Source: Anaerolineae bacterium
GTDB lineage: Bacteria > Chloroflexota > Anaerolineae > S140-20
Reading direction: 5' to 3'
Length of the DNA: 64,000 nucleotides
NCBI GenBank assembly: GCA_027021705.1
Contig: JALUTT010000010.1
Coordinates: 8,211-72,210 of the forward strand
A program made the translations under genes and the position numbers. A model generated the notes under the pieces. That model ran no database searches. It worked only from the letters and a program-made list of their open reading frames with translations, and was not told the origin of the DNA. Shown here in pieces: positions 8,641-64,000 of the stretch (position 1 is the first letter of the stretch; the number at the start of each line of letters is the position of its first letter).

Positions 8641-8805
8641 GGCCTTATCATACCATAGACTGGCCCGTGTGGGATTACGATCGTGTTACGAGATGGTTAC
8701 GAGGCTGCAACGCACCGGCGTTTGCCTTTTTGGAACGATTCTGCTATCATTGGACCGGATGGCTCTCCGACCGATTCGTAGCGGCCTGATTCCGACGGAG
8801 GAATC

Positions 8806-9240
8806 ATGGGACGGATTGTACACACTCAGAGTCCGGCTCGGATTCGCAACTACCACCGGCGCACCATCGCCGAACTCTTGCGCCACCTGAGCCAGAAGCC
8901 CCAAGTGGACGAAGAAGCGAAGGATATGGCCGCCCTGCTGGTCTACAGCCTGCGGGAGATCGGCCAGGTCAACGAGCGCTCGGCCCAAGCGTGGGAGCGG
9001 CGGGACTACTGGCTGAAGGCCGACCGCTTCCGCCGAGAATGGGCCTGGGTGGGCCAGATGGCCGAGGACCTGGAAGATGTGCTGCGCCATCAAGCGTGGG
9101 ACCTCCTGCCCCGCCTCCTGATGGACCTGCTGCCCCGCTTTGCCGACATCAAGGTCACCCGCCTGACCCGTTCGCCGGATCTCTGGCGGGGGGCCTATGA
9201 CCGCCTCGTCAACGACTCTGCCGAATCCCCGCACCAATAA
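8806..9240 (+). CDS. Hypothetical helical protein
   Basis: RBS ggagga, coding-like codon bias, promoter TTGCCT-17-TATCAT at 8722-8750. Confidence 0.8.
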   Translation: MGRIVHTQSPARIRNYHRRTIAELLRHLSQKPQVDEEAKDMAALLVYSLREIGQVNERSAQAWERRDYWLKADRFRREWAWVGQMAEDLEDVLRHQAWDLLPRLLMDLLPRFADIKVTRLTRSPDLWRGAYDRLVNDSAESPHQ

Positions 9241-9257
9241 AGCAAGGGACCTGCCTG

Positions 9258-9917
9258 ATGGAGAACCTGGAACCCATCCTGGAGCGGATTCGTCTTCGTT
9301 TTGAGGCGGAGAACCAGGTGCGCGAGGAGACCCTGCGCCGCTCCCGCGAACTGACCCGCCTCTGTGCTACCGCCATCCGGGCCAGCCATCGCAACAACTT
9401 CGACGAGGCCGAACGGCTGCTGGCCGAGGCCCGGGCGGTGGCGGCTCGGATTCGGGAGGACACGGCAGCGTATCCGGCCATCTTCTACGCCGGCTACACC
9501 CAGGACGCCCTCAAGGAAATGGCCGAGGCCCACATCACCGTTGCCCTGGCCCACCACAGTCCACTGCCGGAGCCCGAGGCTCTGGGCGTCGAGTACCCGG
9601 CCTACCTCAACGGCCTGGCCGAGGCCGCCAGCGAGATGCGCCGCCGTGCCCTCGACATCATCCGGCGCGGCCATTCTCAAGAGGCCGAGCGGCTCCTGGA
9701 GGCGATGGACACCATCTACGGCCTGTTGGTCACCTTCGACTTCCCCGACGCCATCACGGGAGGGCTGCGCCGTCGGATGGACCAGTTGCGGGGCGTGCTG
9801 GAGCGCACCCGAGGGGACCTGACCCTGAGCATCCGGCAGGAGCAGCTCCAGCGGGCGCTCCAAGCTTCTGAGGAGCGGACGACCGGTGAACCACCGAAAG
9901 CGTCGGAAGAGCGCTGA
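9258..9917 (+). CDS. Translin/TRAX-family protein
   Basis: 'REETLRRSREL', 'KEMAEA' and 'YLNGLAEAASEMRR' match the translin-family pattern with acidic catalytic residues. Confidence 0.8.
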   Translation: MENLEPILERIRLRFEAENQVREETLRRSRELTRLCATAIRASHRNNFDEAERLLAEARAVAARIREDTAAYPAIFYAGYTQDALKEMAEAHITVALAHHSPLPEPEALGVEYPAYLNGLAEAASEMRRRALDIIRRGHSQEAERLLEAMDTIYGLLVTFDFPDAITGGLRRRMDQLRGVLERTRGDLTLSIRQEQLQRALQASEERTTGEPPKASEER

Positions 9918-10155
9918 ACTGCCCGTTGTCCGGGCCAGCGAGATCGGGGCCTACGCCTACTGCGCCCGGGCCTGGTGGCTGGGCCACGTCCAGGGCGTGC
10001 CGCCATCGGAGACGGCACGCCTGGAAGCCGGCACCCGGTTCCACCGGCAGCACGGGCGGGGAGCGGCTCAGGGCGTGTGGGCCTGGCGGCTGGCCCTCTT
10101 CTTCTTCGCCCTCGCCCTCCTGGCCGCCCTGCTGGCGCTCCTCACCCTCGGCTGA
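9886..10155 (+). CDS. Cas4-like N-terminal fragment with C-terminal TM helix
   Basis: 'VRASEIGAYAYCARAWWL...GTRFH' resembles the Cas4/AddB N-terminal (S..YC.R..W..G..H) segment; hydrophobic C-terminus. Confidence 0.7.
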   Translation: MNHRKRRKSAELPVVRASEIGAYAYCARAWWLGHVQGVPPSETARLEAGTRFHRQHGRGAAQGVWAWRLALFFFALALLAALLALLTLG

Positions 10156-10172
10156 GACCGGAAGGAGGTGCC

Positions 10173-10694
10173 GTGCTCTTCCTGGGACTGGCTCTCGCCT
10201 TTCTGGTAGTGGGGCTGATCGGGCTCTGGTGGAGCCGGCGGCGGTGGGCGGCAGCCGGCCTGCCCCACGGCCAGATCGTCTACGCCGACGTGGGAGACGC
10301 CTTCCCCGTCCAGGAGGCCCTCTATGATCCCCAGTTGCGCCTGGTGGGCCGGCCCGACTACCTGGTGCGCCAGGGCCGGACCCTCATCCCCGTCGAGGTC
10401 AAGTCGGGGCGGGCGCCGGCCCGAGGGCCGTACCGCTCCCATCTCCTGCAACTGGCCGCCTACTGCCATCTGGTCGAGGCGCAGACGGGCCACCGCCCGC
10501 CCTACGGCCTCATCCGGTACGCGGACCGGACGGTGGCGGTGAACTACACCCCGGCGCTGCGGGAACACCTCGTGCAGACCCTGGCTCGGCTGCGGGCCGA
10601 CCGTCAGGCCACTGAAGTGCATCGGGACCACCATCAGCCGGCTCGGTGCCGCGCCTGCGGCTACCGTGACCGCTGCGATGAAGCCCTAGCCTGA
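10173..10694 (+). CDS. Cas4-like PD-(D/E)XK nuclease, C-terminal part, with N-terminal TM helix
   Basis: GTG after aaggaggt; 'LVGRPDY...PVEVKS...QLAAY' and C-terminal CxxC-x5-C. Confidence 0.85.
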   Translation: MLFLGLALAFLVVGLIGLWWSRRRWAAAGLPHGQIVYADVGDAFPVQEALYDPQLRLVGRPDYLVRQGRTLIPVEVKSGRAPARGPYRSHLLQLAAYCHLVEAQTGHRPPYGLIRYADRTVAVNYTPALREHLVQTLARLRADRQATEVHRDHHQPARCRACGYRDRCDEALA

Positions 10695-10756
10695 CCCAGC
10701 ACGCAACACGCGACACGTGACCCATAACCCGCCACACCGTCCTCCAGGAGGCCCCG

Positions 10757-13700
10757 GTGAGATGTCCTCAGTGCCACCGTGAGGGGCTGCGCCCTCCTGA
10801 CCCCTGCCCCCACTGCCACTTCAGCGGCGATCCCGCCCTGCTGGAGGAGTTGGCCCACGTCGCCTACCTGCTGGCCGAGATGGAGGGCTGGAACCTGCCG
10901 CCCAGCCTCCTGGCCCGCCTCCAGAACCGCTACCGGCGCCGTCAGACCGCCTTGGAGATCGCCCTCGGCCTTCGTCCCCTGCCCCTCTCCTCGGCTGATG
11001 CCCGCCAGCTCTGGTGGGAGGTCATCTGTCTGGAGGCGCTTCAGGAGCGGCTGGCCCACTGGGAGGAAGCGGGCTGGGTACGTCCCGGGGCCGCTCAGGA
11101 GCTGGCCGAGGAGTTGCAGCAGCGCCTCCAGACGCTGCAGGCCCGCCTGGCCGACGGCCCCCCTGCCCCGCCCTTCAGCACCCTCACCGACCGCCTGGCC
11201 CTGCTCCGCTTTCTGCACCAGTCCCTGGACGACTTGCAGGACCGGGATGGCCTGGTGGACGAGGAAGCTTACGCTGCCGCTGCCGCCGACCTGGAGGCGG
11301 AGATCGAGGCCATCGAGGTCACATTGGGGTTGCGCCCTGCCCCCAAACCTGTCCCCGAGCCCGCCCCATCGCCTCCGGCGGAGGCCGAGGTCGGCCTGGA
11401 GCCGCCCCCTCCTCTCTCCCAACGCCTCCGCGCCTGGTTCGACCGGGAGCGCCTCTGGCAGACCCTCCTCTCCGAGCGGACGCTGCGGGCGATGCTCTTC
11501 CTGGGCGTCTTCCTCCTCTTCGCTGCCGCCGTCACGCTGGTCGTCTTCAACTGGGGCCGCTTCCCGCCGGCGGTGCAGGTCTTCTTCCTGGCTGCCTTCA
11601 CCTTCCTCTTCTACGCCCTGGGCTGGTACGTGCGGGTCTCGATGAGGCTGCGCAACTCCGGCATCGCCCTCACCGCCACCGGATCCCTCCTGGTCCCGTT
11701 GGACTTCTACGCCTTCTACCTGGGCGGCGGCTTCACGCCCTATGCCACGCCGGAGCAGGTCTGGTTCCTCACCTCGGTCGTCTGTCTACTGGCCTACCTG
11801 GTCACCGTCTGGGCCATCGAAGCCGAGTTCTTCGGCTACCTGGTGGCCGGGGCCGCCGGAAGCCTCCTCGCCGCGACGATGCGGATCGCCGGCCTTCCCA
11901 CCGACGGACAGATCGCGGCCCTCAGCGCCTTGGCCCTGCTGATCGCGTTGCTGGCCGAGAGGGTGCGGGAGACGAAAAGCCGCTGGCGCGTTCTCCATCG
12001 CCCCTTCTGGCACGCCGCTCTCCTGGGCGTTACCGTGATCCTGTCCCTAGCCTTCGGGCGCTACCTGGCCGGGCTGCTCGGGGAGCGCTCCTTCCGCGCT
12101 GCCCTCGCCGCATCCTGGTGGTTCGGCAGCACCGTCTACGCCTTGGGAGCCCTGCGCTTCCGTTTTCGCCCCCTCTGGAGCCTTGGAATGGTGGGGCTGT
12201 CGGTGGCCCTCTACCTCACCCAAACGCTCCCCCTCGAGCGGGCCGGCCTGGCCTTCGCCTGGCACGCGCCCGGCCTGGCCGGGCTGACGGCCTTCTACGC
12301 CGTCCTCGGCCGCCGGCTCTACACCCACGACCGAGCCGACCCGCTGCGTCGCGCCTGTGGGCGTGTCACCCTGACCTGGAGTACCCTGCTGACCGGCATC
12401 GCGACCCTCTGGTCCTTCGCCAACCCGGTCACCGCCCAGGACGTTGCCACCGTCACCGGTGCCATCCTGACGCTCTCGACGGCGCTGACGGCCTGGCTGT
12501 GGCAGCAGCCCCGCCGGCTCTTCGCCGCCAGCTTCTTCTCCCTCCTCGCCATCACCACGGCAATGGCCTCCCGGGGCCTGACCCTGGCCCAGCTCTGCCT
12601 GGGCTGGACCTTGCTGGCCGTGCTCCACCTGATCCTGGCCGTCCGCCTGCGAGGGCATCCCCCCTTCGCCGCCTCCCTCTACGCCGCCGGGTTCGGGCTG
12701 GCGGCGCTGGCCCTGCTGCCTCCCCTGGTGGGCGGGGAGCAGGGATTGCTCGTCTACGCCCTGGGCAACTGGATCGTCCTGGCCGCCTGGGCCGCCTGGC
12801 TGGACCGCACCGGGCAGCACCCCGGCCTGGGGATCGCCCTCCGCCCCTTGGGCCGCCTGGCCCCCACCGCCCTCTCCTGGGCCGCCGCCCTTCCCCTCCC
12901 CCTCTGGCTCTGGCTGACCTGGACCCACACCTGGTCCCTGGGCCGCTTCGACCGGGCCTGGCTGGGCGTCGCCTTGGCCCTGCTCGCCGGGGCCCTCGTC
13001 CACCTTCCGCCCCGGTCCTCCCTCGCCCTCCCTTGGCGGGCTACCGGCTACCTCACCACAGCCGTGGCCGTTGCCGCCGGCCTGGCCTACTTCGTCGGTG
13101 ACCGACGCCCGCTGGCGCTCCTCTTCCTGCTCATCGCCGTCCTCTACTTCGCCTCCGCCGGGCGCTTCCGGCAGCGGCGGTGGCTCGTGCCGGCCGGGGT
13201 GACGCTGCCGGTGGCCTGGTGGCTCATCCTGGCCCACCACCGCCTGCCGACCGCTCCTACCGGCTCCCTGATGGCGCTGGTGCCGGCCCTCTACCTGCTG
13301 GGGGGGCTGCTGCTGGTCCACCGCCGGCGCGTCGAGGGGAACTTCCTGAAGCCGCTCAACTTCATCGCCCACGGGCTGACGGTGGTGGCCCTGTTGTGGG
13401 GGCTCGCGCCCCTGGGGACCCGGCTGGTGCGGAGCGTCGGGTGGGCCGATCCCGACCGCCTCTGGGCCGCCGGGGGGCAGGTGCTCCTGGGCATCGTCTA
13501 TGGGCTGGTGGCCTGGGGCTACCGTCGGGAGCGATGGGCTCACCTGGCAACTTGGCTGGGCGTCAGCGCCGGGGGCATCGTCGCCACCGTCTACAGCCAC
13601 GGGCGGGGCTCTTCGGCGGCCAAGGCGGCGCTGCTCGCCGTCGCCTACGTCTTGGCGGAACGGACGCTGTTGGCCCTGCGTCCGCGCTGGCCCCTCGCCC

Positions 13701-16489
13701 CCCGGGTCTGGCGGCTCTACCGTCGTCCGCTGCTCGTCGCCGGCTGGGCCGTCTCCGGCGGCACCGTCGTGCTGGCCCTCCTCCGCAACCTGGTGCTGTT
13801 GGGGGGTGGTCGGGTGCGGGAGACCTGGGCCGTCATCGGACTGCTCATCATCGTCGGCCTCTACGCCCTCTCCGCCCGCCTCTTCCGACGCCCCCTCTTC
13901 GTCTGGCTGGCGGCGGTGCTCGTCGTCATCCCCTGGACTCTCCTCACCCACCTGGGCTGGTTCTTCCTCCCCCATCCCCTTCGCCTGCCCCAGTACGCCC
14001 TCGCCTGGCTGGTCCTGGCCTGGCTCCAGGTGGGGCTTGGCCTGGGGCTCGAGGCCCGAGGCGCCCGTCCCTATGGCCTTCCCCTTCGCGTCGTCGCCCA
14101 CCTGCTGGCCCCCTTCGGCCTGCTCTGGTCCCTGGCCGACCCCCCCACCGCCAGCATCGGTTGGGGGCTGGGCGTCGCCTTCTACGCCGTCTCGACGCTG
14201 GTGGACCACCGGCGGATGCCAGGGCAGGCGAGGGCGGCCCGCTTCCTCTACCCGACCGCGCTCCTGACGCCGGCCTGGACCGTCTACCTGATGATCCGCT
14301 TCGCGCCGACGGCCCAGCATCACCACTTCGGGCTCCTGCTGCTGGCCTTCGGACCGCTGGGCCTGCTGATCGGACGCCTGTTGCGGCGCATTCATCCTGC
14401 CGATGCGCTTCCCACCTACCTGGCCGCTTACGGCGCCGTCCTGGTCGGCACGCTCCTCGTCGCCCACCTGCGGCCCTGGCTCATCGGCGTCCTGCTCTTC
14501 GACGCCGTCCTCGCCGCCATCTCCGCCTGGCTCCACGCCGAGCCCCTCTGGGGCTACCCGGCTACCGCCTTCCCCATCGTCTCCCTGATGCTGGCCCTGA
14601 CCGAGTTCCGGGTGGACCCGAACCGCCACGGCTGGCCGCTCATCGCCCTGGGCGCGGCCTACCTGCTGATCGCCCACGGATTGCGGCGGGCTCGCCGGGA
14701 GCGCTATGCCATCCCCCTGATGGCGGTGGCCTACATCGCGGTGGCCCTGGGGCTGCCCCCCTCCAGCCGCGATCAGGTAGGGGCTTTCTGGGGCTACGGT
14801 GGTGCGGCGGTGGTCTACGCCCTCTCGGCGGTCTGGTTGCGTCAGCCGCTCCTCCTGACGCCGGCCCTCCTGCTGGCAGCCGTGCCCTACGGCGTGGCCC
14901 TCGTCCGCTCGTCGGTGGCTCCGGCCGACTACGGGCTCGGACTCTGGCCGGGGATCGCCCTCGTGCTGGTCGTGGCCCACCTGCTCGACCGTCGCCTGGG
15001 GGCACCCCGCGACTTCCCCTGGGGAGTCCCTACCCGCTGGCCGAGGGCCCTGGGGGAGCGCTGGTTCACCTGGGCGGGGCTGCCCTTCTACGCGGTCGGC
15101 TACCTGGCCGCCGTTGTCGCCGTCGTCCTCTCGCTGGTCTTGGGAGACACCCTCCGAGTGGCCGCCACCCTGGGCCTGGCCGCGCTGGCCTACGCCCAGG
15201 CCACCTGGCGTTTCCGTCTGCGAGGGTGGCTCCTGGCCGCCGCCACGGCCGCCCAATTGGCCTGTCTGGCCCTGATCCATCGGCAGGTCGGTCTGGTCTG
15301 GCCTGCCCGCGCCGCCCTCGCCTTCCTGCCGGTGACGGCGGCCACCGCGCTGGTGGCCCTCCTGATCCAACGGTGGCTTGGAGAAGGCTCCCCTTGGAGG
15401 GGGTGGCGTGCTCTGGTCGCCGGGTGGTCCCGTCCCCTCTACCTCCTCCTGATGGCGGACCTGGCCCTCGGACAGGGGGCTGCTTTCGCCGAGGCGGGGC
15501 CGGGTGGGCTGGTCTCCCTGGGCCACGCCCTGATCGTCGCGCTGCTGGCTTCTGCCTGGATGCTGGGGCCGGCCACCTACGCGGCGATGGCGTTGGGCGT
15601 GCTGGCCCTCTTCCAGCGGTTGACCGCCTCCCACGCCCCGCTGGAGCGCTGGTTGGAGGCGTTGGCTCTCCTGGCCCTGGGGTACGGGGTGGTCGGCTAC
15701 GGATTGCGCTACCTCTCCCGCCGGAGGGCGGCCCTGCCCCCCCGGCTGCGCCTTTGGGCGGAGCCGTTGGCCTACGGCGGGTTTAGCCTCACGACGGCGA
15801 CGCTGCTCTGGGCGGGGCTCTGGGGCGGAACCAGGGTGCTCTGGCTGACCTTCCTGGTCCTCATCGAGCAGCCCCTGCTGACGGCGGCCCAGGTGCCTGT
15901 GGTGCAGATGGTGATCACGGTGTCAGCCCTGGCCGGCCTGACCTACCTGGCGGTGGCGTTGGTCGAGAGGTGGCGTTGGCTGGGCTACGGCGCGGTGGCG
16001 CTTCTGTTGGTGGCCTACAACCTGGAACTGCTGCTCTTCCTCGGTCAGCGGGAGGTGCAGGGGTACGCGGTGCCGGCCGGCCTCTACCTACTGGGCATTG
16101 GCTATCTGGAGTGGCGGGAGGGGCATCGCCCCCTGGCCCGTTGGGTGGACCGCACGGCGTTGCTGCTGCTCTTCGGTTCGGCCTTCTGGCAGTCCCTGGT
16201 GATGGAAGGGGGGTGGCGCTATGCCCTGCTGATGGGGGGTGAGGGGCTGGGGGTGGCCTGGTGGGGCAGTGCCCGGCGGCTGCGCCGTTTCCTCTACGGC
16301 GGCGTGAGCGCCGTGGTGCTCGCCGTGGTCGGACAGCTTGTGGAGCCCCTCTTCTCCGTCAACCGTTGGATCGTCCTCGGGGCCGTTGGGTTGCTGTTGG
16401 TGGGCGTCGCCACGCTGGTCGAGCGGCGGCTGGAGGCGGTGCTGCAACTCTCGCAGGAGCTGCGGGAGCGGCTGGAGCGGTGGGAGTAG
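10757..16489 (+). CDS. Very large polytopic membrane protein with N-terminal zinc ribbon (DUF2157/SCO7613-like, tentative)
   Basis: 1910 aa, CPQC..CPHC N-terminus, helical soluble region, then dozens of hydrophobic segments; RBS aggagg. Confidence 0.8.
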   Translation: MRCPQCHREGLRPPDPCPHCHFSGDPALLEELAHVAYLLAEMEGWNLPPSLLARLQNRYRRRQTALEIALGLRPLPLSSADARQLWWEVICLEALQERLAHWEEAGWVRPGAAQELAEELQQRLQTLQARLADGPPAPPFSTLTDRLALLRFLHQSLDDLQDRDGLVDEEAYAAAAADLEAEIEAIEVTLGLRPAPKPVPEPAPSPPAEAEVGLEPPPPLSQRLRAWFDRERLWQTLLSERTLRAMLFLGVFLLFAAAVTLVVFNWGRFPPAVQVFFLAAFTFLFYALGWYVRVSMRLRNSGIALTATGSLLVPLDFYAFYLGGGFTPYATPEQVWFLTSVVCLLAYLVTVWAIEAEFFGYLVAGAAGSLLAATMRIAGLPTDGQIAALSALALLIALLAERVRETKSRWRVLHRPFWHAALLGVTVILSLAFGRYLAGLLGERSFRAALAASWWFGSTVYALGALRFRFRPLWSLGMVGLSVALYLTQTLPLERAGLAFAWHAPGLAGLTAFYAVLGRRLYTHDRADPLRRACGRVTLTWSTLLTGIATLWSFANPVTAQDVATVTGAILTLSTALTAWLWQQPRRLFAASFFSLLAITTAMASRGLTLAQLCLGWTLLAVLHLILAVRLRGHPPFAASLYAAGFGLAALALLPPLVGGEQGLLVYALGNWIVLAAWAAWLDRTGQHPGLGIALRPLGRLAPTALSWAAALPLPLWLWLTWTHTWSLGRFDRAWLGVALALLAGALVHLPPRSSLALPWRATGYLTTAVAVAAGLAYFVGDRRPLALLFLLIAVLYFASAGRFRQRRWLVPAGVTLPVAWWLILAHHRLPTAPTGSLMALVPALYLLGGLLLVHRRRVEGNFLKPLNFIAHGLTVVALLWGLAPLGTRLVRSVGWADPDRLWAAGGQVLLGIVYGLVAWGYRRERWAHLATWLGVSAGGIVATVYSHGRGSSAAKAALLAVAYVLAERTLLALRPRWPLAPRVWRLYRRPLLVAGWAVSGGTVVLALLRNLVLLGGGRVRETWAVIGLLIIVGLYALSARLFRRPLFVWLAAVLVVIPWTLLTHLGWFFLPHPLRLPQYALAWLVLAWLQVGLGLGLEARGARPYGLPLRVVAHLLAPFGLLWSLADPPTASIGWGLGVAFYAVSTLVDHRRMPGQARAARFLYPTALLTPAWTVYLMIRFAPTAQHHHFGLLLLAFGPLGLLIGRLLRRIHPADALPTYLAAYGAVLVGTLLVAHLRPWLIGVLLFDAVLAAISAWLHAEPLWGYPATAFPIVSLMLALTEFRVDPNRHGWPLIALGAAYLLIAHGLRRARRERYAIPLMAVAYIAVALGLPPSSRDQVGAFWGYGGAAVVYALSAVWLRQPLLLTPALLLAAVPYGVALVRSSVAPADYGLGLWPGIALVLVVAHLLDRRLGAPRDFPWGVPTRWPRALGERWFTWAGLPFYAVGYLAAVVAVVLSLVLGDTLRVAATLGLAALAYAQATWRFRLRGWLLAAATAAQLACLALIHRQVGLVWPARAALAFLPVTAATALVALLIQRWLGEGSPWRGWRALVAGWSRPLYLLLMADLALGQGAAFAEAGPGGLVSLGHALIVALLASAWMLGPATYAAMALGVLALFQRLTASHAPLERWLEALALLALGYGVVGYGLRYLSRRRAALPPRLRLWAEPLAYGGFSLTTATLLWAGLWGGTRVLWLTFLVLIEQPLLTAAQVPVVQMVITVSALAGLTYLAVALVERWRWLGYGAVALLLVAYNLELLLFLGQREVQGYAVPAGLYLLGIGYLEWREGHRPLARWVDRTALLLLFGSAFWQSLVMEGGWRYALLMGGEGLGVAWWGSARRLRRFLYGGVSAVVLAVVGQLVEPLFSVNRWIVLGAVGLLLVGVATLVERRLEAVLQLSQELRERLERWE

Positions 16490-33068: not shown

Positions 33069-35705
33069 CTATCGGGAAACCAGGGGCAGGAAAACGCGGT
33101 AGGCGGTACTGGCGGCCCCGCTGTCCGGGTCCAGGTAGTTGGGGATGCCGTCGTGGTCGCTGTCCCCGGTTCCCTCGTCTTGATCCAGGATGCCGTCGCC
33201 ATCGGAGTCCAGGTCCAGATAGTTGGGGATGCCATCGCCGTCGGCATCGGGATCAGGGATGCCGTCGTTGTCGGCGTCGCCCGTCGCCTCGACGGCGTCG
33301 GGGATGCCATCGCCGTCGGAGTCGAGGTCGAGGAAGTTGGGGACGCCGTCGTGATCAGCGTCGCCTGCACCCTCATCGGCGTCGGGGATGCCATCGCCGT
33401 CGGAGTCGAGGTCGAGGAAGTTGGGGGTGCCGTCGCCATCGGCGTCGTCGGCTCCCTCGACGGCGTCAGGGATGCCATCGCCGTCGGAGTCGAGGTCGAG
33501 GAAGTTGGGGGTGCCGTCGCCGTCGGCGTCATCGGCTCCCTCGACGGCGTCAGGGATGGTATCGCCATCGGAGTCGAGGTCGAGGAAGTTGGGGGTGCCG
33601 TCGCCGTCGGCGTCGTCAGCCCCTTCGACGGCGTCAGGGATGGTATCGCCATCGGAGTCGAGGTCGAGGAAGTTGGGGGTGCCGTCGCCGTCGGCGTCGT
33701 CGGCTCCCTCGACGGCGTCAGGGATGGTATCGCCATCGGAGTCGAGGTCGAGGAAGTTGGGGGTGCCGTCGCCGTCGGCGTCATCGGCTCCCTCGACGGC
33801 GTCGGGGATGGTGTCGCCATCGGAGTCGAGGTCGAGGAAGTTGGGGGTGCCGTCGCCGTCGGCGTCGTCAGCCCCTTCGACGGCGTCGGGGATGGTGTCG
33901 TTATCGGCGTCCCGGTCTAGGTAGTTGGGGGTGCCATCACCGTCGGCATCACCTCTCCCTTCCAGAGAGTCGGGGATGCCATCGTCGTCGGTGTCGGGGA
34001 CGGCGCTCACGTAGTCGGTGACGGAGACTTCGATGAAATCGGGGAGTTCGTTGCTCTTGGCCCAGGCGGTGTTCACCACCGGACCACCGCCCGCCGGCTG
34101 GAAGTCCTCAGCCACCTGGACCTGGAAGCGGAGGATCAGGTCCTCATCGGGGGCCAGGACCGTCTCCGACATCATCGCGGTGATTAGTACCGTCCCGCTG
34201 TCATAGCTGAAGAGCAAGAGGTCGGCATTGGTCCAGACGGTGCCGCTGATGTAGGTGGTGTTCGTCGGCACCAGGTCCACGATGACGACACCCGTCTGGG
34301 GGCGTCCCCCGGTGTTGGCAGCGACAACCTCGTAGGTGATGATGCCACCGGGGTAGAGGGGGGTATCGGTCCAGGAGACCTTGCTCAGGATGAGCTCGTA
34401 GGCCAGAATAGCGGTGCTGGTTTCGGCGTCGTCGGTCACCGTCTGGCCCAGGCGGTCGCGGCCTGAGGCGGTGGCCTGGTTCACCAGCGGGTCCTCGTCC
34501 GACTCCTGGACGGTGTAGGACATCTGGCAGGTGTAGGAGTCGGCAGGGGCCAGGGTGTCTCGGTCGCAGTCCGGCACCGTGGCGGCGATGAGAGCATCGT
34601 AGACGGAGAGGTCGTAGAGGGGAGTGTCGCCCGTGTTGGTCACGGTGAAGGTATAGACGATGGTCTCACCGATGCCCGTCTGGGCGGGTCCCTCTTTCTC
34701 CAGGGCGATGGCTGGATGGAGGATGTCGAGGCTGTGGGAGGCGGAAGCGCTGGCCTGACGTCCGTAAGGGTCTGTGCCTACTGCGGCGGCTTCGTTGACG
34801 AGGGGGGGATCTGCTCCTGCGGGCACAGTGTAGCTGGCTTGGCAAGTGTAGGTGTCGCCGGGGAGCAGCCCTGAGTAGGCGCAGTTGGCCACCTCACCGC
34901 CCAGCAGCGGGTCCGAGACCGTGACGTCCAGGGGGACCAGGCCGGTGTTGGTGATTTCGAAGGTGTAGGTGACCTCGTCTCCTTCGTGGGCGGCATCGGG
35001 ACCGCTCTTGGTCATAGTCAGCGCCGGGGGAGCGATGATGTAGCAGACCTCCAGCCAGGGGCGCTGGCTGGTGACTTCGTATTCGCTGCTGTAGTACTTT
35101 TCGTACTCGGCGAAGCCGGCGTCAGGGACCTCCAGCACGATGCCGTAGTTGGGGCGCTGACCGTCCAGCCACTCTTGGACCAGGGCGGTCAGGTCACTGG
35201 TGTGCCAACCCTTCGTCTCTACGGAGAAGCTGCCGGCGACCTCGGGGTCCAGGCTCTCGGCGAAGCTTTCCCAGGTGACGGTGGACTCCTCCCAGGCGGT
35301 CGTAGCGGCGTGGATGGAGACGGTGGCCTGTCGGGCTCCCTCGAAGTGGTAGATGCCAAAGGTTGCCGAGTCCAGGATGGCTCCTTCCGGGAGGATGTCG
35401 TCTAGGTCGAACCAGAGAAGGGCCCACTTGCGGTAGACGTTCACCTTGCCTGTGTGCAGGTGGCGGGCGGAGCCCAGGTTGCGCTGGGGGAGCCCTTCCC
35501 AGATGCTGGCGTCGGCCACCGTGCCGAAGGTGCCCCGCTGAATGAGCACGCACGTCCGTTCCGGTCCAGTCTGGGGGAGGGCTTCTGGGGAGGTGGCCGA
35601 TGGGCTCGTGGCCTGCACCAGGGTGGGGGAGAGGAGGAGAAGGGAAAGAAGCAGCCAGCTCAGAAGGGAAAGGATGGCTATAGGTCTGTGACGTTGTGTG
35701 ATCAT
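33069..35705 (-). CDS. Secreted surface protein: DNRLRE-like domain, DUF11-like Ig repeats, thrombospondin type-3-like Ca-binding repeats, C-terminal VFLPLV motif
   Basis: Signal peptide; 'WEESTVTW..FYSSE'-like; 'YTFEITNTG' repeats; about 10 DxDGDxIPD units. Confidence 0.85.
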   Translation of the reverse strand: MITQRHRPIAILSLLSWLLLSLLLLSPTLVQATSPSATSPEALPQTGPERTCVLIQRGTFGTVADASIWEGLPQRNLGSARHLHTGKVNVYRKWALLWFDLDDILPEGAILDSATFGIYHFEGARQATVSIHAATTAWEESTVTWESFAESLDPEVAGSFSVETKGWHTSDLTALVQEWLDGQRPNYGIVLEVPDAGFAEYEKYYSSEYEVTSQRPWLEVCYIIAPPALTMTKSGPDAAHEGDEVTYTFEITNTGLVPLDVTVSDPLLGGEVANCAYSGLLPGDTYTCQASYTVPAGADPPLVNEAAAVGTDPYGRQASASASHSLDILHPAIALEKEGPAQTGIGETIVYTFTVTNTGDTPLYDLSVYDALIAATVPDCDRDTLAPADSYTCQMSYTVQESDEDPLVNQATASGRDRLGQTVTDDAETSTAILAYELILSKVSWTDTPLYPGGIITYEVVAANTGGRPQTGVVIVDLVPTNTTYISGTVWTNADLLLFSYDSGTVLITAMMSETVLAPDEDLILRFQVQVAEDFQPAGGGPVVNTAWAKSNELPDFIEVSVTDYVSAVPDTDDDGIPDSLEGRGDADGDGTPNYLDRDADNDTIPDAVEGADDADGDGTPNFLDLDSDGDTIPDAVEGADDADGDGTPNFLDLDSDGDTIPDAVEGADDADGDGTPNFLDLDSDGDTIPDAVEGADDADGDGTPNFLDLDSDGDTIPDAVEGADDADGDGTPNFLDLDSDGDGIPDAVEGADDADGDGTPNFLDLDSDGDGIPDADEGAGDADHDGVPNFLDLDSDGDGIPDAVEATGDADNDGIPDPDADGDGIPNYLDLDSDGDGILDQDEGTGDSDHDGIPNYLDPDSGAASTAYRVFLPLVSR
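33123..33996 (-). repeat. 84-bp coding tandem repeat (28-aa DSDGDTIPDAVEGADDADGDGTPNFLDL), about 10 units
   Basis: Seen directly in DNA and translation; central units near-identical. Confidence 0.92.
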
Positions 35706-46800: not shown

Positions 46801-47057
46801 TCTCCCGTAGGAGGGCTTTTCAAGCCCGACCTGTCGGCCCTGGAAGGGCCTCCTACGAGCCTTCCCGTAGGAGGGCTTTTCAAGCCCGACCTGTCGGCCC
46901 TGGAAGGGCCTCCTACGAGCCTTCCCGTCGGAGGGCTTTTCAAGCCTGACCCGTCGGCCCTGGAAGGGCCTCCTACGAGCTTCCCGTAGGAGGGCTTTTC
47001 AAGCCCGACCTGTCGGCCTTGGAAGGACCTCCTATCGGCCCTGGAAGGGCCTCCTAC
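46801..47057. repeat. Tandem array of ~60-bp REP doublets (GTAG-type, REPIN/BIME-like), 4 units plus a partial unit
   Basis: GTAGGAGGGCTTTTCAAGCCCGAC paired with inverted GTCGGCCCTGGAAGGGCCTCCTAC in each unit. Confidence 0.85.
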
Positions 47058-47698
47058 GCCGTCTCCCGCTCTAACAAGGGCACGACGGCCTTCCAGATGT
47101 CGGTCTGCACCGCCTCGATGGGGCGATCGGCATCCAGCACTCGCCATCGTCCCGGTTCTGCTGCTGCCAGGGCGAGGTACCCTGCCCGCACCCGTTGGTG
47201 AAAGGCTACCTCCTCTTGGTCTAACCGGTTCCACTCCCCTTCGCCCCGTTGGAGGGCCTCCCGTTTGCGTGCCAGTCCCTTCTCGACCGGCAGGTCCAGG
47301 TAAAGCGTCAGGTGAGGTTTTAACCCGCCGGTGGCGAAGTCCATCATCCTCCGTAGCGTCTCCAGATCCAGCCCGCGACCGTATCCCTGGTAGGCGAGGG
47401 TGCTGTCGGTGTAGCGGTCGCAGAGGACGATGGTGCCTCGTGCCAGGGCCGGGCGGATGACCTCGGCGACCAGTTGGGCTCGGGAGGCGGCGTAGAGCAG
47501 GACCTCGGTTCGGGGGTCCATCGCCCGGTTGCGGAGGTCGTGGAGCACGGCCCGAATCTGGTCGCCGATGGCGGTACCGCCAGGTTCACGGGTGGTGAGG
47601 ACGGGCTGGCCGGCCTGGCGTAGCCGGTCGGCCAGCCGTTGGATCTGCGTCGTCTTCCCACTCCCCTCGGGGCCTTCGAAGGTGATGAAAAGGCCCAT
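47054..47698 (-). CDS. tmk: Thymidylate kinase
   Basis: 'FITFEGPEGSGKTTQ', 'TREPGG', 'CDRYTDSTLAYQG'. Confidence 0.96.
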   Translation of the reverse strand: MGLFITFEGPEGSGKTTQIQRLADRLRQAGQPVLTTREPGGTAIGDQIRAVLHDLRNRAMDPRTEVLLYAASRAQLVAEVIRPALARGTIVLCDRYTDSTLAYQGYGRGLDLETLRRMMDFATGGLKPHLTLYLDLPVEKGLARKREALQRGEGEWNRLDQEEVAFHQRVRAGYLALAAAEPGRWRVLDADRPIEAVQTDIWKAVVPLLERETA

Positions 47699-58878: not shown

Positions 58879-59073
58879 ACCCTCCCGCAGGTCCCCGGTG
58901 GAGGGCGCTTTCAGCCCCGATGGGCTATTTGAAGCGCGGTTTCGCGTCGGAAACGCGCCTAACCTGCGGGAGGGTGGCCCTCCCGCAGGTCCCCGGTGGA
59001 GGGCGCTTTCAGCCCCGATGGGCTATTTGAAGCGCGGTTTCGCGTCGGAAACGCGCCTAACCTGCGGGAGGGT
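58879..59073 (+). repeat. Two tandem copies of family A repeat
   Basis: Copies at 58879-58975 and 58978-59073. Confidence 0.92.
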
Positions 59074-59146
59074 GAACGGTTACTGGGCCGGAAAGATGGG
59101 GGTATTGTAGCACAAGTTGGGGAAGGCAACAAACGGACGGGGGGGA

Positions 59147-59234: not shown

Positions 59235-60364
59235 CTCAACGGATTAGCTGTCAACGGATTCGGGGAGCGGATTGAACGGATTGAAGGAGCGGATTGGAGG
59301 AACGGAGGGCTGTCAACGGATTAGGGGAGCGGATTGAGCGGATGTGGAGGTTGGTGCTCCCAAGCAGGCTTATCCGGCCTTTCGCACGCTTTGTGCCCTT
59401 TGCGCTCTTGGTGTTCTTCGTGTTTCTCGTCGTGGCCGGAGCGGATGAGCTGTCAACGGATTAGGGGAGCGGATTGAGCGGATGTGGGGGTTGGTGCTCC
59501 CAAGCGGGCTTGTCCGGCCTTTCGCACGCTTTGTGCCCTTTGCGCTCTTGGTGCTCTTCGTGTCTCTCGCCGTGGCCGGAGCGGATGAGCTGTCAACGGA
59601 TTAGGGGAGCGGATAGAACGGATTGAAGGAGCGGATTGGAGGAACGGAGGGCTGTCAATGGATTGGGGGAGCGGATTGAGCGGATGTGGAGGTTGGTGCT
59701 CCCAAGCGGGCTTGTCCGGCCTTTCGCACGCTTTGTGCCCTTTGCGCTCTTGGTGCTCCTCGTGTCTCTCGCCGTGGCCGGAGCGGATGAGCTGTCAACG
59801 GATTGGCTGTCAACGGATTAGGGGAACGGATTGAACGGATTGAAGGAGCGGATTGGGGGAACGGAGGGCTGTCAACGGATTGGGGGAGCGGATTGAGCGG
59901 ATGTGGGGGTTGGTGCTCCCAAGCGGGCTTGTCCGGCCTTTCGCACGCTTTGTGCCCTTTGCGCTCTTGGTGCTCCTCGTGTCTCTCGCCGTGGCCGGAG
60001 CGGATGAACTGTCAACGGATTGGGGGAGCGGATTGAACGGATTGAAGGAGCGGATTGGAGGAACGGAGGGCTGTCAACGGATTAGGGGAGCGGATTGAGC
60101 GGATGTGGAGGTTGGTGCTCCCAAGCGGGCTTGTCCGGCCTTTCGCACGCTTTGTGCCCTTTGCGCTCTTGGTGCTCTTCGTGTCTCTCGCCGTGGCCGG
60201 AGCGGATGAACTGTCAACGGATTGGCTGTCAACGGATTCGGGGAGCGGATTGAACGGATTGAAGGAGCGGATTGGAGGAACGGAGGGCTGTCAATGGATT
60301 GGGGGAGCGGATTGAGCGGATGTGGAGGTTGGTGCTCCCAAGCGGGCTTATCCGGCTTTTCGCA
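59235..60364 (+). repeat. Modular tandem array (62-, 140- and 15-bp modules, each starting CTGTCAACGGATT)
   Basis: Order A B B A B C A B A B C A B'; 13 copies of the 13-mer head, two with one mismatch. Confidence 0.95.
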
Positions 60365-63300: not shown

Positions 63301-64000
63301 CTGTGGGCGCGGGTGGAGGCGCACCCCCACTGGCGGGCCGTCGTCCGCGCCCTCTACCTGGCCCCTTGGGCCGACCTGGAGGCGGCGGCCATCGTCCGCG
63401 ATTCCCCCCTGACGGACGACCTGCTCCCCCTGCTGCGGGGGAGGCCGGAGGAGCGCGAGGGGCTGCTGGCGTTGCTCTGGGCCCGTTTCGAGGTGGCAGG
63501 GGAGGACGACCTCCTGGGGCGGGACGCCGGCCTGGCCCTGGCCCACCTGGAGGAGGGGCGGCTGGCTGCCCTCTTGGCGGGGGGCAGCGAGGATCGCCCG
63601 CCGGCGCGGGCGATCCTCGCCGCAGCATTCCTTGACCTCGCCCTCGCCCTCGCCCTCGCCCTCGCCCTCGCCCTCGACCGCGCCCTCGCCCGCGCCCTCG
63701 CCCTCGCCCTCGCCCGCGACCTCGACCTCGACCTCGACCTCGCCCTCGCCCTCGACCTCGACCTCGCCCTCGACCTCGCCCTCGACCTCGCCCTCGCCCA
63801 CGCCCTCGCCCTCGCCCGCGCCCTCGCCCGCGACCTCGCCCTCGCCCTCGCCCGCGACCTCGACCTCGACCTCGCCCGCGACCTCGACCTCGACCGCGCC
63901 CGCGCCCACGACCTCGCCCTCGCCCGCGCCCTCGACCTCGCTCCCGACCTCGACCGCGCCCGCGCCCGCGCCCTCGACCGCGCCCGCGCCCTCGGCCTCG
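60385..64000 (+). CDS. NACHT-domain (NLR-like STAND) NTPase, runs off window end
   Basis: ATG 60385 after ggag; Walker A GDPGSGKT (61471), Walker B LILDGLDE (61810), 'VTSR', 'NPLLL', 'FLHRQFQEY', 'WREV'; no stop in window. Confidence 0.93.
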   Translation, partial: MTLPADFLSNLAVELVADLLKAGAGRLRDAAFGDAETQALGRAWERAFQTMLEEVAADLEEDRAGLVGDLFREFVRAEGVADALLDLALEGREPPLEALRTRFDEMDFDRETLPVDFDAALTALTRGLADALWEAAARPESPLHNRVSLVRVAVIHELLREQRGTLETIAATVARLEARLGAAKYNLIFLGPVSGIGVGDRAIVTALPPDLRPLLERALALLTDLAASRQPPPYTEADLTAYLQAVVRECATVQLPYAQEGQASLPLERIYVALRADRSSPAERKASYRLMQRLAREREVFRPGQVEGQVLHRLALLDPYAARYLLYDPDRWGELLQAMGEGRERTYHLAELVRRHRWLVLLGDPGSGKTTLARWLALQLARALQEGREEVEVPGDHVRPDAEAGSREPLGPARLPILVRIADYAAARWPRPGEDTPLPLLNYLGRHLQGRLRPGRRPEAVHALLRDYLVAGRVTLILDGLDEVTNPDQRQAVVAEIEDLIRDWVRDARGRSPLDPGYLPAPDGPGDGNQIIVTSRIVGYHLRPLHENLPHFVIQPMDDTAVRRFCHNWAAATGAPEQADALAKAILKHPNPHVREQMARNPLLLTILAQVFGEDPEEGLPARRAELYRRATRAVFGQRQDRWGRLVQAVGGPDPAKALERLLTRITACVAFHLHANPDYPAALADGPSVRRWLRETLAGELVEDFLAAAAHLSGFFVARGEGVYGFLHRQFQEYFAALHLVEEAKGREGPGRWQPFFERLGDPNWREVLLLTVGAVEADEELGRREAVRLVEAVLEADDLTGGLLPHNLLFAAAALREVERPDADLVRRVAEGLIAAYRRDDEARFQVLHERVERAFAALPRRLGRRDPVGEALCAALTHPPRSDRPRAGSRRAGEGGAGSRLTRLAAAELVVRSEWCTREVARALARAWREHPEPAATLLVALQKVYDAHPDHFSPAFLPFRRAVEGEPELWARVEAHPHWRAVVRALYLAPWADLEAAAIVRDSPLTDDLLPLLRGRPEEREGLLALLWARFEVAGEDDLLGRDAGLALAHLEEGRLAALLAGGSEDRPPARAILAAAFLDLALALALALALALDRALARALALALARDLDLDLDLALALDLDLALDLALDLALAHALALARALARDLALALARDLDLDLARDLDLDRARAHDLALARALDLAPDLDRARARALDRARALGL
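63634..64000 (+). repeat. Coding hexamer repeat G[C/A]CC[T/G]C encoding (A/D)(L/R) dipeptides
   Basis: gccctc/gacctc/gcccgc/gaccgc units give DLALALAL...DRALARALALALARDLDLDL... Confidence 0.92.

Follow-up and report, generated by a model that had tools for sequence, protein, structure and literature searches.

Cas4-type nucleases are common outside CRISPR loci. Members of the family, such as CRISPR Cas4 (TIGR00372/PF01930/COG1468; 8D3L, 7MI4, 4IC1), are single soluble polypeptides of ~160 to 220 aa. Related "iron-staple" nuclease domains (AddB, AdnA/AdnB, Dna2, Exo5) are likewise soluble and are found in large single chains. Family members encoded away from CRISPR-cas loci have been described as Solo-Cas4 (PMC5704561), and supplementary file 4 of Hudaiberdiev et al. 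2017 includes one solo cas4 each from Anaerolinea thermophila UNI-1 and Caldilinea aerophila (PMC5704561). In the main text of that paper the words "transmembrane" and "split" are absent and "membrane" occurs once (PMC5704561). The Solo-Cas4 of M. mazei is described as a single purified protein that forms a ~318-kDa complex, with its four cysteines on the same polypeptide (Rentz et al. 2025, PMC12501428).

Here we describe a locus from a 64,000-nt stretch of an Anaerolineae genome (hereafter, the window) at which the hallmarks of the Cas4 family are spread over two genes: motif I is encoded by a small gene, A, the catalytic Asp, the ExK motif, and the QxxxY motif by a larger gene, B, and the four cysteines by both together. 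The pair departs from the single soluble polypeptide of the family in comprising two genes, each of whose products has one membrane helix, and it differs from CRISPR Cas4 in that the break falls between motifs I and II and the genes lie away from cas1, cas2, and an array. It resembles Solo-Cas4 in belonging to the Cas4 family outside CRISPR-cas loci; compared with the M. mazei protein, one cysteine and motif I sit on the separate small subunit A. We consider it probable, at roughly 70%, that A and B are the halves of one Cas4-family (solo-Cas4) nuclease domain, each anchored in the membrane, that share an Fe-S site and a metal site. In the literature searched, whose coverage did not extend to subscription journals, no published description of the split or of the anchors was found. 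B may correspond to the published Chloroflexi solo-cas4 genes, and a MAG labelled Anaerolinea thermophila (L054) carries the A-B pair. B is called Cas4 in the sources and no name for A turned up, so A is easily missed.

Two genes carry complementary parts of a Cas4-like domain

The sequence-only reading had proposed a Cas4-like nuclease divided between two ORFs in different frames, and both were recovered as described (9886-10155 and 10173-10694, with 17 nt between them). The features of the locus are as follows.

9258..9917, + strand: translin/TRAX (C3PO)-like gene, upstream neighbor of A (NF011160, E 1.4e-78); it shares its final 32 nt with the start of A
9870..9875, + strand: Shine-Dalgarno-like GAGGAG, 10 nt upstream of the GTG of A, read from the sequence
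9886..10155, + strand: gene A, small tail-anchored subunit, 89 aa, GTG start; N-terminal segment of Cas4, then a C-terminal membrane helix
9961..9963, + strand: codon of A Cys26, which occupies the first, N-terminal, Fe-S ligand position in the Cas4 pattern, invariant in 17/17
10030..10044, + strand: A motif I, G49-T-R-F-H53, with the predicted metal-ligand His; G49 and H53 invariant in 17/17
10078..10152, + strand: C-terminal hydrophobic helix of A, predicted membrane anchor (KD-19 maximum, 2.77)
10160..10169, + strand: Shine-Dalgarno GGAAGGAGGT, ending 3 nt upstream of the GTG of B, read from the sequence
10173..10694, + strand: gene B, large subunit, 173 aa, GTG start; N-terminal membrane helix followed by a Cas4 PD-(D/E)XK core
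10176..10232, + strand: hydrophobic helix at the N terminus of B, with RRRW after it (KD-19 maximum, 2.55)
10356..10403, + strand: B catalytic motifs II and III, D62 (in RPDY) and E75-V-K77, invariant in 19/19
10449..10463, + strand: B QxxxY motif, Q93-L-A-A-Y97; Q93 and Y97 invariant in 19/19
10647..10676, + strand: B C159-x2-C162-x5-C168, the three C-terminal Fe-S ligands of the Cas4 pattern, invariant in 19/19

Taken alone, the Cas4 likeness of A is weak by profile matching. Residues 17-58 match positions 3-44 of the 180 in TIGR00372 (E 1.6e-4; 21.6 bits against a cut-off of 65), PDDEXK_1 is also matched at positions 4-43, and the scores lie under both Pfam cut-offs (PF01930, PF12705). Profile comparison with the PDB gives Cas4 8d3l_I at E 0.088, and hhalign against the canonical 219-aa Cas4 of the same genome covers residues 27-67 with a probability of 36.6% (E 3.7e-4). 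The residues conserved in A are nonetheless those of the Cas4 pattern: C26, G49, and H53 are each invariant in all 17 A homologues, C26 aligns with the N-terminal cysteine of both 8d3l_I and the genome's own Cas4, and G49 and H53 align with the G..H of the same two proteins. His62 of SSO0001, the counterpart of H53, is described as a metal ligand (PMC13621843).

B is the more readily recognized of the two. Its match to TIGR00372 spans residues 52-168 and model positions 63-178 (E 1.7e-16, 60.6 bits, same cut-off of 65), and it passes both Pfam cut-offs (PF01930, 36.0 versus 22.7 bits; PF12705, 44.1 versus 22). Neither A (21.6 bits) nor B (60.6 bits) reaches the TIGR00372 cut-off of 65 by itself, and their plain sum lies above it. 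Motifs II and III align to Cas4 models and structures, the three cysteines align with the three C-terminal cysteines of 8d3l_I, and residues 86-207 of the genome's own 219-aa Cas4 are covered by B. D62, E75, K77, Q93, Y97, C159, C162, and C168 are invariant in 19/19 B homologues, and C159, C162, and C168 are kept in 95/95 rows of the B-homologue alignment. Neither the first cluster cysteine nor the G..H of motif I is present in B; A carries both. The 1+3 division of cluster cysteines that had been read from the DNA (C26 in A; C159, C162, and C168 in B) is thus borne out, with all four invariant. The motif-I His, too, lies on the small chain, a point that goes beyond the earlier claim.

Membrane helices and predicted topology

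Each product has a strongly hydrophobic segment at the end that faces the break. In A the best Kyte-Doolittle score over a 19-residue window is 2.77 (residues 70-88), two K/R occur in the 12 residues before the helix and none after it, and one residue extends past the membrane; the C-terminal score is at least 2.05 in 17/17 A homologues. In B the best score is 2.55 (residues 1-19), with no K/R before the helix and three in the 12 residues after it, and the N-terminal score is at least 1.88 in 19/19 B homologues. By the positive-inside rule the core of B would be cytoplasmic, and the charge distribution puts the soluble parts of both A (17/17) and B (19/19) on the same, cytoplasmic, side. Two further claims of the sequence-only reading stand: that the first ORF joins the N-terminal Cas4 segment and first cysteine to a C-terminal hydrophobic helix (from the model match and the 17/17 invariance), and that the second has its own strong ribosome-binding site (GGAAGGAGGT), an N-terminal hydrophobic helix, the nuclease core, and three cysteines (19/19 invariance).

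The split is conserved across Chloroflexota

One alternative, for which no support was found, is that the two ORFs of this genome reflect misassembly, pseudogene formation, or a frameshift of recent origin. Three further sequencing runs gave contigs across the A-B junction that carry substitutions only and no indels. One of these, record 18 of run X4, covers 9200-10800 with 39 substitutions and no gaps; in this strain variant each of the four substitutions in A is nonsynonymous and falls at a family-variable position, and the 12 altered codons of B include five amino-acid changes, a pattern that counts against the two-subunit reading. Since the three other runs show no indels and the same two-gene layout occurs in several classes of the phylum, we regard the chance of such a recent error as negligible.

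A survey of Chloroflexota for split versus fused forms, which had been suggested from the DNA as a check, found the split to be the norm: in 77 of 80 named loci, A is an ORF of its own that lies upstream of B. Nor do the relatives consist of one continuous ORF: among 1,288 matches to B, the best 120 are 168 to 194 aa long, and the best 120 of 4,693 matches to an A-B read-through query are 148 to 202 aa. The small ORF is itself conserved, as a family of 520 cluster representatives of which the best 150 are 68 to 133 aa. A search of the relatives of A, itself a weak test, returned no longer (fused) forms. One pattern scan of species-representative genomes confirmed at least 585 relatives. Most of the families sampled within the class carry the pair, as do several families elsewhere in the phylum; the counts are 31 of 41 for the relatives and 74 of 251 for the phylum genomes, a distribution that fits the mainly vertical inheritance ascribed to Solo-Cas4.

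The two genes are also co-inherited. With thresholds of E <= 1e-29 for B and E <= 1e-3 for A, 74 of the 251 sampled phylum genomes have a B match, and 69 of those 74 have an A match too. In three more of the 74 (G174, G269, and G277), a local profile search revealed weakly matching A-like ORFs that adjoin B (E 2e-6 to 4e-7), and once these weak matches and one genome with a fused form (G069) are counted, A accompanies B in 73 of 74 genomes; in the remaining one (G042), B lies ~520 nt from a contig end. Conversely, A matches without a strong B were seen in only 3 of the 251 genomes, and in two of these three A adjoins a weaker B-like gene. In four genomes (G016, G006, G011, and G014) A and B are unlinked yet both retained. 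In members of genus g77 and in G277, catalytic residues have been lost and the A-B pair has been kept, so the function of the pair may not always be cleavage. On sequence evidence, the split is conserved across the phylum and A/B is not a broken gene.

A-B spacing bears on a second alternative, that programmed frameshifting or stop-codon read-through joins A and B into one polypeptide. In its favor, the B frame is open upstream to 9975, and in one locus (L071) the frame stays open through the latter half of A and into B. Across 73 adjacent pairs, however, the median spacing is 5 nt with 21 overlaps, and the junctions include overlaps of 1 and 4 nt and gaps of 3, 5, 17, and more nt. All three frame relations are therefore found, some genomes have an entire gene between A and B and others have the two unlinked, and B has its own strong Shine-Dalgarno. 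The nearest relative of L071 (92% identity) is split and L071 itself is frameshifted inside A, and we judge frameshifting or read-through highly improbable.

L071 was also considered as a second natural fusion and set aside, given the frameshift in A, the 92%-identical split relative, and record names that point to a long-read MAG. It is probably an assembly error or a very recent change and is not counted as support.

A natural fusion models as one Cas4 domain

In one genome, G069, a single ORF (L125:1395-2411, 339 aa) contains an A part, two hydrophobic helices, and a B part in a single frame; three congeners of G069 have the split form. The fusion has lost the motif-II Asp and is a distant relative, with ~29% identity to the B of the window. 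Its AlphaFold model has a mean pLDDT of 83.5, a pTM of 0.69, and an N-terminal part at 84 to 91, values to be read in light of an input alignment that combined B rows with the N-terminal 55 residues from 19 A homologues, unpaired, and of the fact that AlphaFold knows Cas4 structures. From B rows alone, the N-terminal part was modeled at pLDDT 36 to 57. Helices are placed at residues 117-147 and 155-195, and residues 81-115 are unmodelled (pLDDT 48 to 59). As predicted, the fusion would form one complete Cas4 domain that overlays complete Cas4. Atlas look-alikes of the fusion, which we treat as a lead only, are Cas4/PDDEXK clusters of 265 to 282 aa, mostly from Thermoplasmatota (scores, 0.96 to 0.97).

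A proposed two-subunit membrane nuclease

We infer a heterodimer from the co-occurrence of the genes, their tight spacing, their complementary motifs, and the one fusion whose model overlays Cas4. In the proposed arrangement, the nuclease domain would be divided between motifs I and II. A would be tail anchored, with 60 cytoplasmic residues that include C26 and H53, and B would have a short external N terminus, one membrane helix, and a cytoplasmic core bearing D62, E75, K77, QxxxY, and three cysteines. The two membrane helices would pair in a hairpin-like manner and so unite the halves. A [4Fe-4S] cluster would then be completed across the interface, with one ligand from A and three from B, as would the catalytic metal site, with the His from A and the Asp and Glu from B, and the assembled enzyme would be located at the membrane's inner face, where it would cut DNA. 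The anatomy of the two genes, the conservation of the split since ancient times, and the joint inheritance of A and B are observed, and assembly, cluster sharing, topology, and activity are all predictions from sequence. To our knowledge, Fe-S clusters shared 1+3 between different subunits are unusual; compared with the iron-staple nucleases, the staple here would join two membrane proteins.

A different reading is that B alone is a membrane-anchored nuclease. A would then be an independent small membrane protein, for example a regulator or inhibitor or one that aids insertion; its only tie to Cas4 would be descent from the N terminus, and it would complete neither the active site nor the cluster. 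The four genomes with unlinked genes and the weak Cas4 match of A fit this reading, as does M. mazei Solo-Cas4, which is reported to keep its nuclease activity when the cluster cysteines are mutated and hence to be active without the cluster (PMC12501428). The latter result also implies that a shared cluster need not be essential for catalysis under the preferred reading. We nevertheless think it unlikely that B acts alone, since what A keeps invariant is precisely what B lacks, namely the Cas4 cluster cysteine and motif-I G..H, since A almost never occurs without B in the 251 genomes, and since the model of the natural fusion is a single complete Cas4 domain.

Under the reading that we prefer, of two membrane-anchored halves of one domain, the pair appears to be a natural split enzyme in which the function of the cluster could be tested simply, by supplying or withholding the small subunit. 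Placement at the cytoplasmic face would restrict the candidate substrates to DNA or RNA in contact with the membrane.

Genomic context and possible roles

The gene upstream of A encodes a translin-like product that also matches AfTRAX in the PDB (3zc1, E 3.5e-22). This gene is a conserved neighbor of A in Anaerolineae: it is present in 62 of 80 named loci, every time with A, and in G011 and G014, two genomes with B on another contig, it still adjoins A. In Anaerolineae the translin-like gene, A, and B form a predicted operon. Among the relatives, neighbors are translin-like, YkuD, M50 peptidase, or HD genes; the 144-aa ORF at 8806-9240 and the downstream 1,910-aa protein are not conserved beside the pair.

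The sequence-only reading had also stated that no CRISPR lies nearby. This holds for the window, in whose 64 kb no CRISPR-like array was found, and the contig gave no Cas1 match, but it does not extend to the genome as a whole, which has CRISPR-Cas loci on other contigs: Cas1 matches occur on four of them, and the canonical 219-aa Cas4 lies beside Cas1 on one (C155). In PADLOC, A and B matched only generic families (Cas4 and DruK), no defense-system context emerged, and the translin-like gene had no match.

Because the Anaerolineae operon includes a translin/C3PO-like nuclease gene, our preferred guess at a role is membrane-proximal processing or degradation of nucleic acid, for example of incoming or stray DNA, rather than CRISPR adaptation. 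The association of the pair with a bacterial translin/C3PO homologue may offer another lead.

The halves might also be kept apart in the membrane until a signal, such as a membrane disturbance caused by phage entry, cell division, or DNA uptake, triggers assembly, so that the split would switch a dangerous nuclease on and off. Separate anchors would permit such regulated pairing, and overexpressed M. mazei Solo-Cas4 is reported to reduce growth (PMC12501428), which suggests that nucleases of this kind need control. The tight or overlapping A-B spacing and the viable natural fusion are, however, a better fit to constitutive 1:1 assembly, and PADLOC gave no defense-system context; we hold regulated assembly to be improbable. 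A more elaborate version, speculative and in our estimate rather unlikely, is a safety catch in which A and B diffuse apart and pair upon a membrane event (phage DNA entry, uptake, or septum closure), the 1+3 cluster serves as the latch, and the enzyme, together with the C3PO-like translin nuclease in Anaerolineae, destroys nucleic acid at the membrane. If true, this would amount to a new membrane-gated surveillance of nucleic acids unrelated to CRISPR. Our preferred reading is still that of two anchored halves that jointly form one nuclease domain.

As to transcription signals, a consensus scan gave a single promoter-like site, at 8722-8750, and no terminator after B; one terminator-like site inside the helix-coding region of A was taken as chance.

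Division of a Cas4 domain between two genes

The sequence-only reading had proposed a Cas4-like nuclease split into two genes, A for the small N-terminal half and B for the core half. The features involved are as follows.

9258-9917, + strand: translin/TRAX (C3PO)-like gene, directly 5' of A, overlapping its start by 32 nt
10 nt 5' of the A start, + strand: GAGGAG
9886-10155, + strand: gene A, GTG start, 89 aa
3' end 3 nt before the B start, + strand: GGAAGGAGGT
10173-10694, + strand: gene B, GTG start, 173 aa

A and B are 17 nt apart and in different frames, and GGAAGGAGGT provides B with the ribosome-binding site of its own that had been claimed. Residues 17-58 of A match positions 3-44 of the 180-position Cas4 model TIGR00372 (E 1.6e-4, 21.6 bits), and residues 52-168 of B positions 63-178 (E 1.7e-16, 60.6 bits); B also exceeds the Pfam cut-offs of PF01930 and PF12705 and is annotated at source as a Cas4 or Dna2/Cas4 domain protein. 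On the 219-aa canonical Cas4 of the same genome, the A family aligns with residues 27-67 (hhalign E 3.7e-4, probability 36.6%) and the B family with residues 86-207 (E 1.5e-13, probability 98%). Because these alignments are complementary, the two products jointly span one Cas4 domain, and the proposed split holds. The break corresponds to the ~19-residue stretch separating motif I (G..H, on A) from motif II (D62, on B), and both hydrophobic helices are located precisely there.

Contigs from three further public sequencing runs, compared over window 9200-10800, list no indels and have 0 gaps in every piece, which rules out an assembly error or frameshift as the cause of the split. One contig (X2 record 8) spans 9200-10410 with one substitution; another (X4 record 18) spans the entire interval with both frames preserved and, having 39 substitutions and no indels, comes from a diverged strain. 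There, 12 codons of B contain 13 substitutions that alter 5 residues, and A has 4 substitutions, all nonsynonymous (H3P, E11D, L12P, P39S) and each at a family-variable position. Four of four amino-acid-changing substitutions in A is too small a number to indicate relaxed selection, yet we count it as a point against.

Conservation and co-inheritance of the pair

The split is the conserved state of this gene pair. Relatives of B numbered 1288 at E ≤ 1e-3 within the searched length band, the best 120 being 168-194 aa long; the one fused form found is in G069. The small ORF is likewise conserved: in a library without length filter, 520 cluster representatives match it at E ≤ 1e-3 (best 150, 68-133 aa). 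Within the same class, B was matched in 31 of 41 genomes, and A lay upstream on the same strand in 16 of 19 non-self loci (tblastn). A is away from B in the other three (G016, G006, G011) and in G014: by 2.8 Mb on one chromosome in G016, and on separate contigs in the rest.

A pattern scan of species-representative genomes gave 585 confirmed B relatives, of which the best 80 form our named loci set; these are named Anaerolineales, Anaerolineae, Caldilineae, Thermoflexales, Brevefilum, Anaerolinea thermophila or Chloroflexota, apart from two Pyrinomonadaceae. A is upstream on the same strand in 77 of the 80; upstream DNA is missing in one of the others, and no A occurs inside 1.4 kb in two. The pair-carrying MAGs labeled Pyrinomonadaceae (Acidobacteriota; loci L080 and L122) result either from wrong binning of Chloroflexota contigs or from gene transfer.

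We also searched the same 251 genomes of the phylum with A and B profiles. B was matched at E ≤ 1e-29 in 74 (51 at ≤ 7e-52, 23 between 1e-43 and 1e-29), and 69 of these 74 had an A match at E ≤ 1e-3; we give raw counts, with no statistic, because related genomes are non-independent samples. G174, G269, and G277 have, immediately 5' of B, an A-like ORF of 140-143 aa with a weaker match (E 2e-6 to 4e-7), G069 has the fusion and no separate A, and in G042, with no A match, B lies ~520 nt from a contig end. Only three of the 251 genomes had A without B at E ≤ 1e-29: in G132 and G157 it adjoins a weaker or truncated B-like gene, and in G117 the match is weak and inside a 324-aa frame. Two unpublished genomes in this sample (G076, G263) gave weak canonical-type matches only, and no claim is built on either.

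The pair occurs as three sequence types: the Anaerolineae type, which includes the window; a second with an A of 135-149 aa bearing an acidic insertion and a B of 187 aa; and a third in which the two reading frames overlap. The cysteine and G..H motif of A, both helices, and C-x2-C-x5-C are present in each type, which makes the fission an old one. G106, a genome of the third type, has two copies of the pair, on contigs C91 and C54 (L044, L143).

Among 73 adjacent pairs in the 80 named loci, the median distance from the A stop to the chosen B start was 5 nt, with 21 overlaps; start codons were chosen heuristically, and two extreme values are artifacts of that choice. A Shine-Dalgarno-like core precedes B in 12 of the 73, versus 4% of random positions. 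Distances include 1- and 4-nt overlaps and 3-, 5-, and 17-nt gaps, and because every one of the three frame relations occurs, a single recoding mechanism joining A and B is ruled out. Eight loci have A-B gaps of gene size (L005, L006, L012, L018, L051, L058, L100, L101), and some Anaerolineae genomes have a YkuD gene separating A from B, with Pfam confirmation for L020 and L017 only.

L020:617-1393: membrane-anchored YkuD L,D-transpeptidase gene between A and B, Pfam-confirmed
L017:593-1471: the same, Pfam-confirmed
L010:530-1480: YkuD-like gene between A and B, likeness judged by eye

Membrane helices and sidedness

A hydrophobic helix on each product, as first read from the sequence, was borne out by Kyte-Doolittle scoring in 19-residue windows. 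The maximum in A is 2.77 (residues 70-88, with a single residue remaining C-terminal of the helix) and in B 2.55 (residues 1-19). The C-terminal window scores 2.05 or more in every one of the 17 A homologues and stops 1-11 residues short of the C-terminus; in every one of the 19 B homologues the N-terminal window scores 1.88 or more and begins at residues 1-14. The A homologues carry 1-5 K/R within 12 residues ahead of the helix and 0-1 beyond it; the B homologues carry 2-5 within 12 residues past the helix, and ahead of it none in 15 of 19, one in 3, and four in 1. Read by the positive-inside rule, an established guide to membrane-protein topology, this distribution would place the soluble parts of both A and B in the cytoplasm. 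Fe-S cluster insertion takes place in the cytoplasm.

A natural fusion and derived forms

The G069 fusion is one 353-codon open frame (L125:1395-2411, 339 aa counted from the first ATG), running from an A-type N-terminus with its cysteine through two hydrophobic helices, separated by a six-residue loop, to a B-type core with three cysteines. It is ~29% identical to the window's B and is without the motif-II aspartate; its congeners G174, G269, and G237 have the two-gene form. We folded it with AlphaFold as a natural single chain, adding the first 55 residues of 19 A homologues to the alignment. With these rows the mean pLDDT rose to 83.5 and pTM to 0.69 (pLDDT 84-91 at residues 11-80; helices at 117-147 and 155-195), values to be read with the alignment rows being unpaired and Cas4 structures already known to AlphaFold. 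In this model the A part thus stands in for the Cas4 N-terminal region, with the helix hairpin as an insertion, and an overlay suggests that the four cysteines converge. Atlas look-alikes of the fused protein are Cas4 clusters of 265-282 aa, mostly from Thermoplasmatota, which we take as a lead.

In L125 (G069), L040 (G174), L041 (G269), L129 (G237), and L126 (G277), B has Ala, Ser, or Thr in place of the motif-II aspartate, and G277 has also lost ExK. These forms, from one genus and a neighboring lineage, retain the pair, helices, and cysteines and are probably inactive or repurposed derivatives; the sole fused form falls among them. The L071 locus (1209-1953) belongs to a MAG that, judging by its record names, was assembled from long reads; its A has a frameshift beyond the cysteine helix, and the second half of that A continues stop-free into B as a 219-aa ORF. 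We do not count it as a fusion; because its nearest relative (92% identity) is split, it is probably an assembly error or very recent change.

Proposed two-chain enzyme and relation to known Cas4

In SSO0001, the catalytic metal ligands described in PMC13621843 are His62, Asp99, Glu113, and the main chain of Lys115. The equivalent histidine is H53 (with G49) on A, and D62, E75, and K77 are on B, as is QxxxY (Q93/Y97); the cluster ligands are divided as the sequence-only reading had it, one on A and three on B. On the simplest interpretation of these motifs, A and B would form an obligate two-chain enzyme, in which the membrane helices would pull the halves together at the inner membrane face and the Fe-S cluster and metal site would be completed across the interface. 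Because M. mazei Solo-Cas4 stays active after mutation of its cluster cysteines (PMC12501428), the cluster of the pair may by analogy be structural; even then, motif I would still have to be supplied by A.

Hudaiberdiev et al. 2017 (PMC5704561) term the Chloroflexi solo-Cas4 monophyletic, and their supplementary file 4 has one solo cas4 each in A. thermophila and C. aerophila; the B half probably belongs to this group. The words "transmembrane" and "split" are absent from the main text of that paper, and our full-text literature search turned up no paper describing a Cas4 that is split or anchored in the membrane. What emerges is a genuine, conserved, and unusual arrangement: a Cas4-family nuclease predicted to assemble from two membrane-anchored chains.

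Genomic context

The translin-like product (NF011160, E 1.4e-78; A. fulgidus TRAX 3zc1, E 3.5e-22) belongs to a superfamily that, according to PMC5100593, occurs among bacteria in Chloroflexi only. Its gene is the immediate upstream neighbor of A within Anaerolineae; it occurs in 62 of the 80 named loci, A being present every time, and in G011 and G014 it remains beside A although B sits on another contig. In other classes the neighbors are an M50 peptidase with PDZ domains or an HD protein, so A-B is the only constant partnership. Membrane-proximal nucleic-acid processing is our guess at the role of the pair. Downstream (10757-16489, + strand) lies a 1910-aa predicted polytopic membrane protein with paired, zinc-ribbon-like N-terminal CxxC motifs; Pfam gives no match to it, and it does not flank the pair in other loci.

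Cas1 matches in the window's genome lie on four other contigs (C155, C85, C104, C117), and on C155 the canonical Cas4 gene immediately precedes Cas1; the split pair thus coexists with ordinary CRISPR adaptation genes. The reported lack of a nearby CRISPR is right for the window, where the repeat arrays (59247-60364, 58880-59074, 46803-47063, and 63588-64000) are non-CRISPR. The first consists of interleaved 22/35-nt AACGGATTG-type units inside 202/419-nt higher-order repeats; the arrays also include a perfect 97-nt duplication, a 60-nt unit in four to five copies, and the hexamer CCTCGC, ~60 copies of which extend to the window end. A GC-rich stretch at 33123-34011 contains an 84-nt unit nine times in tandem, with 69-100% identity to the reference copy, and is probably a repeat-domain coding region.
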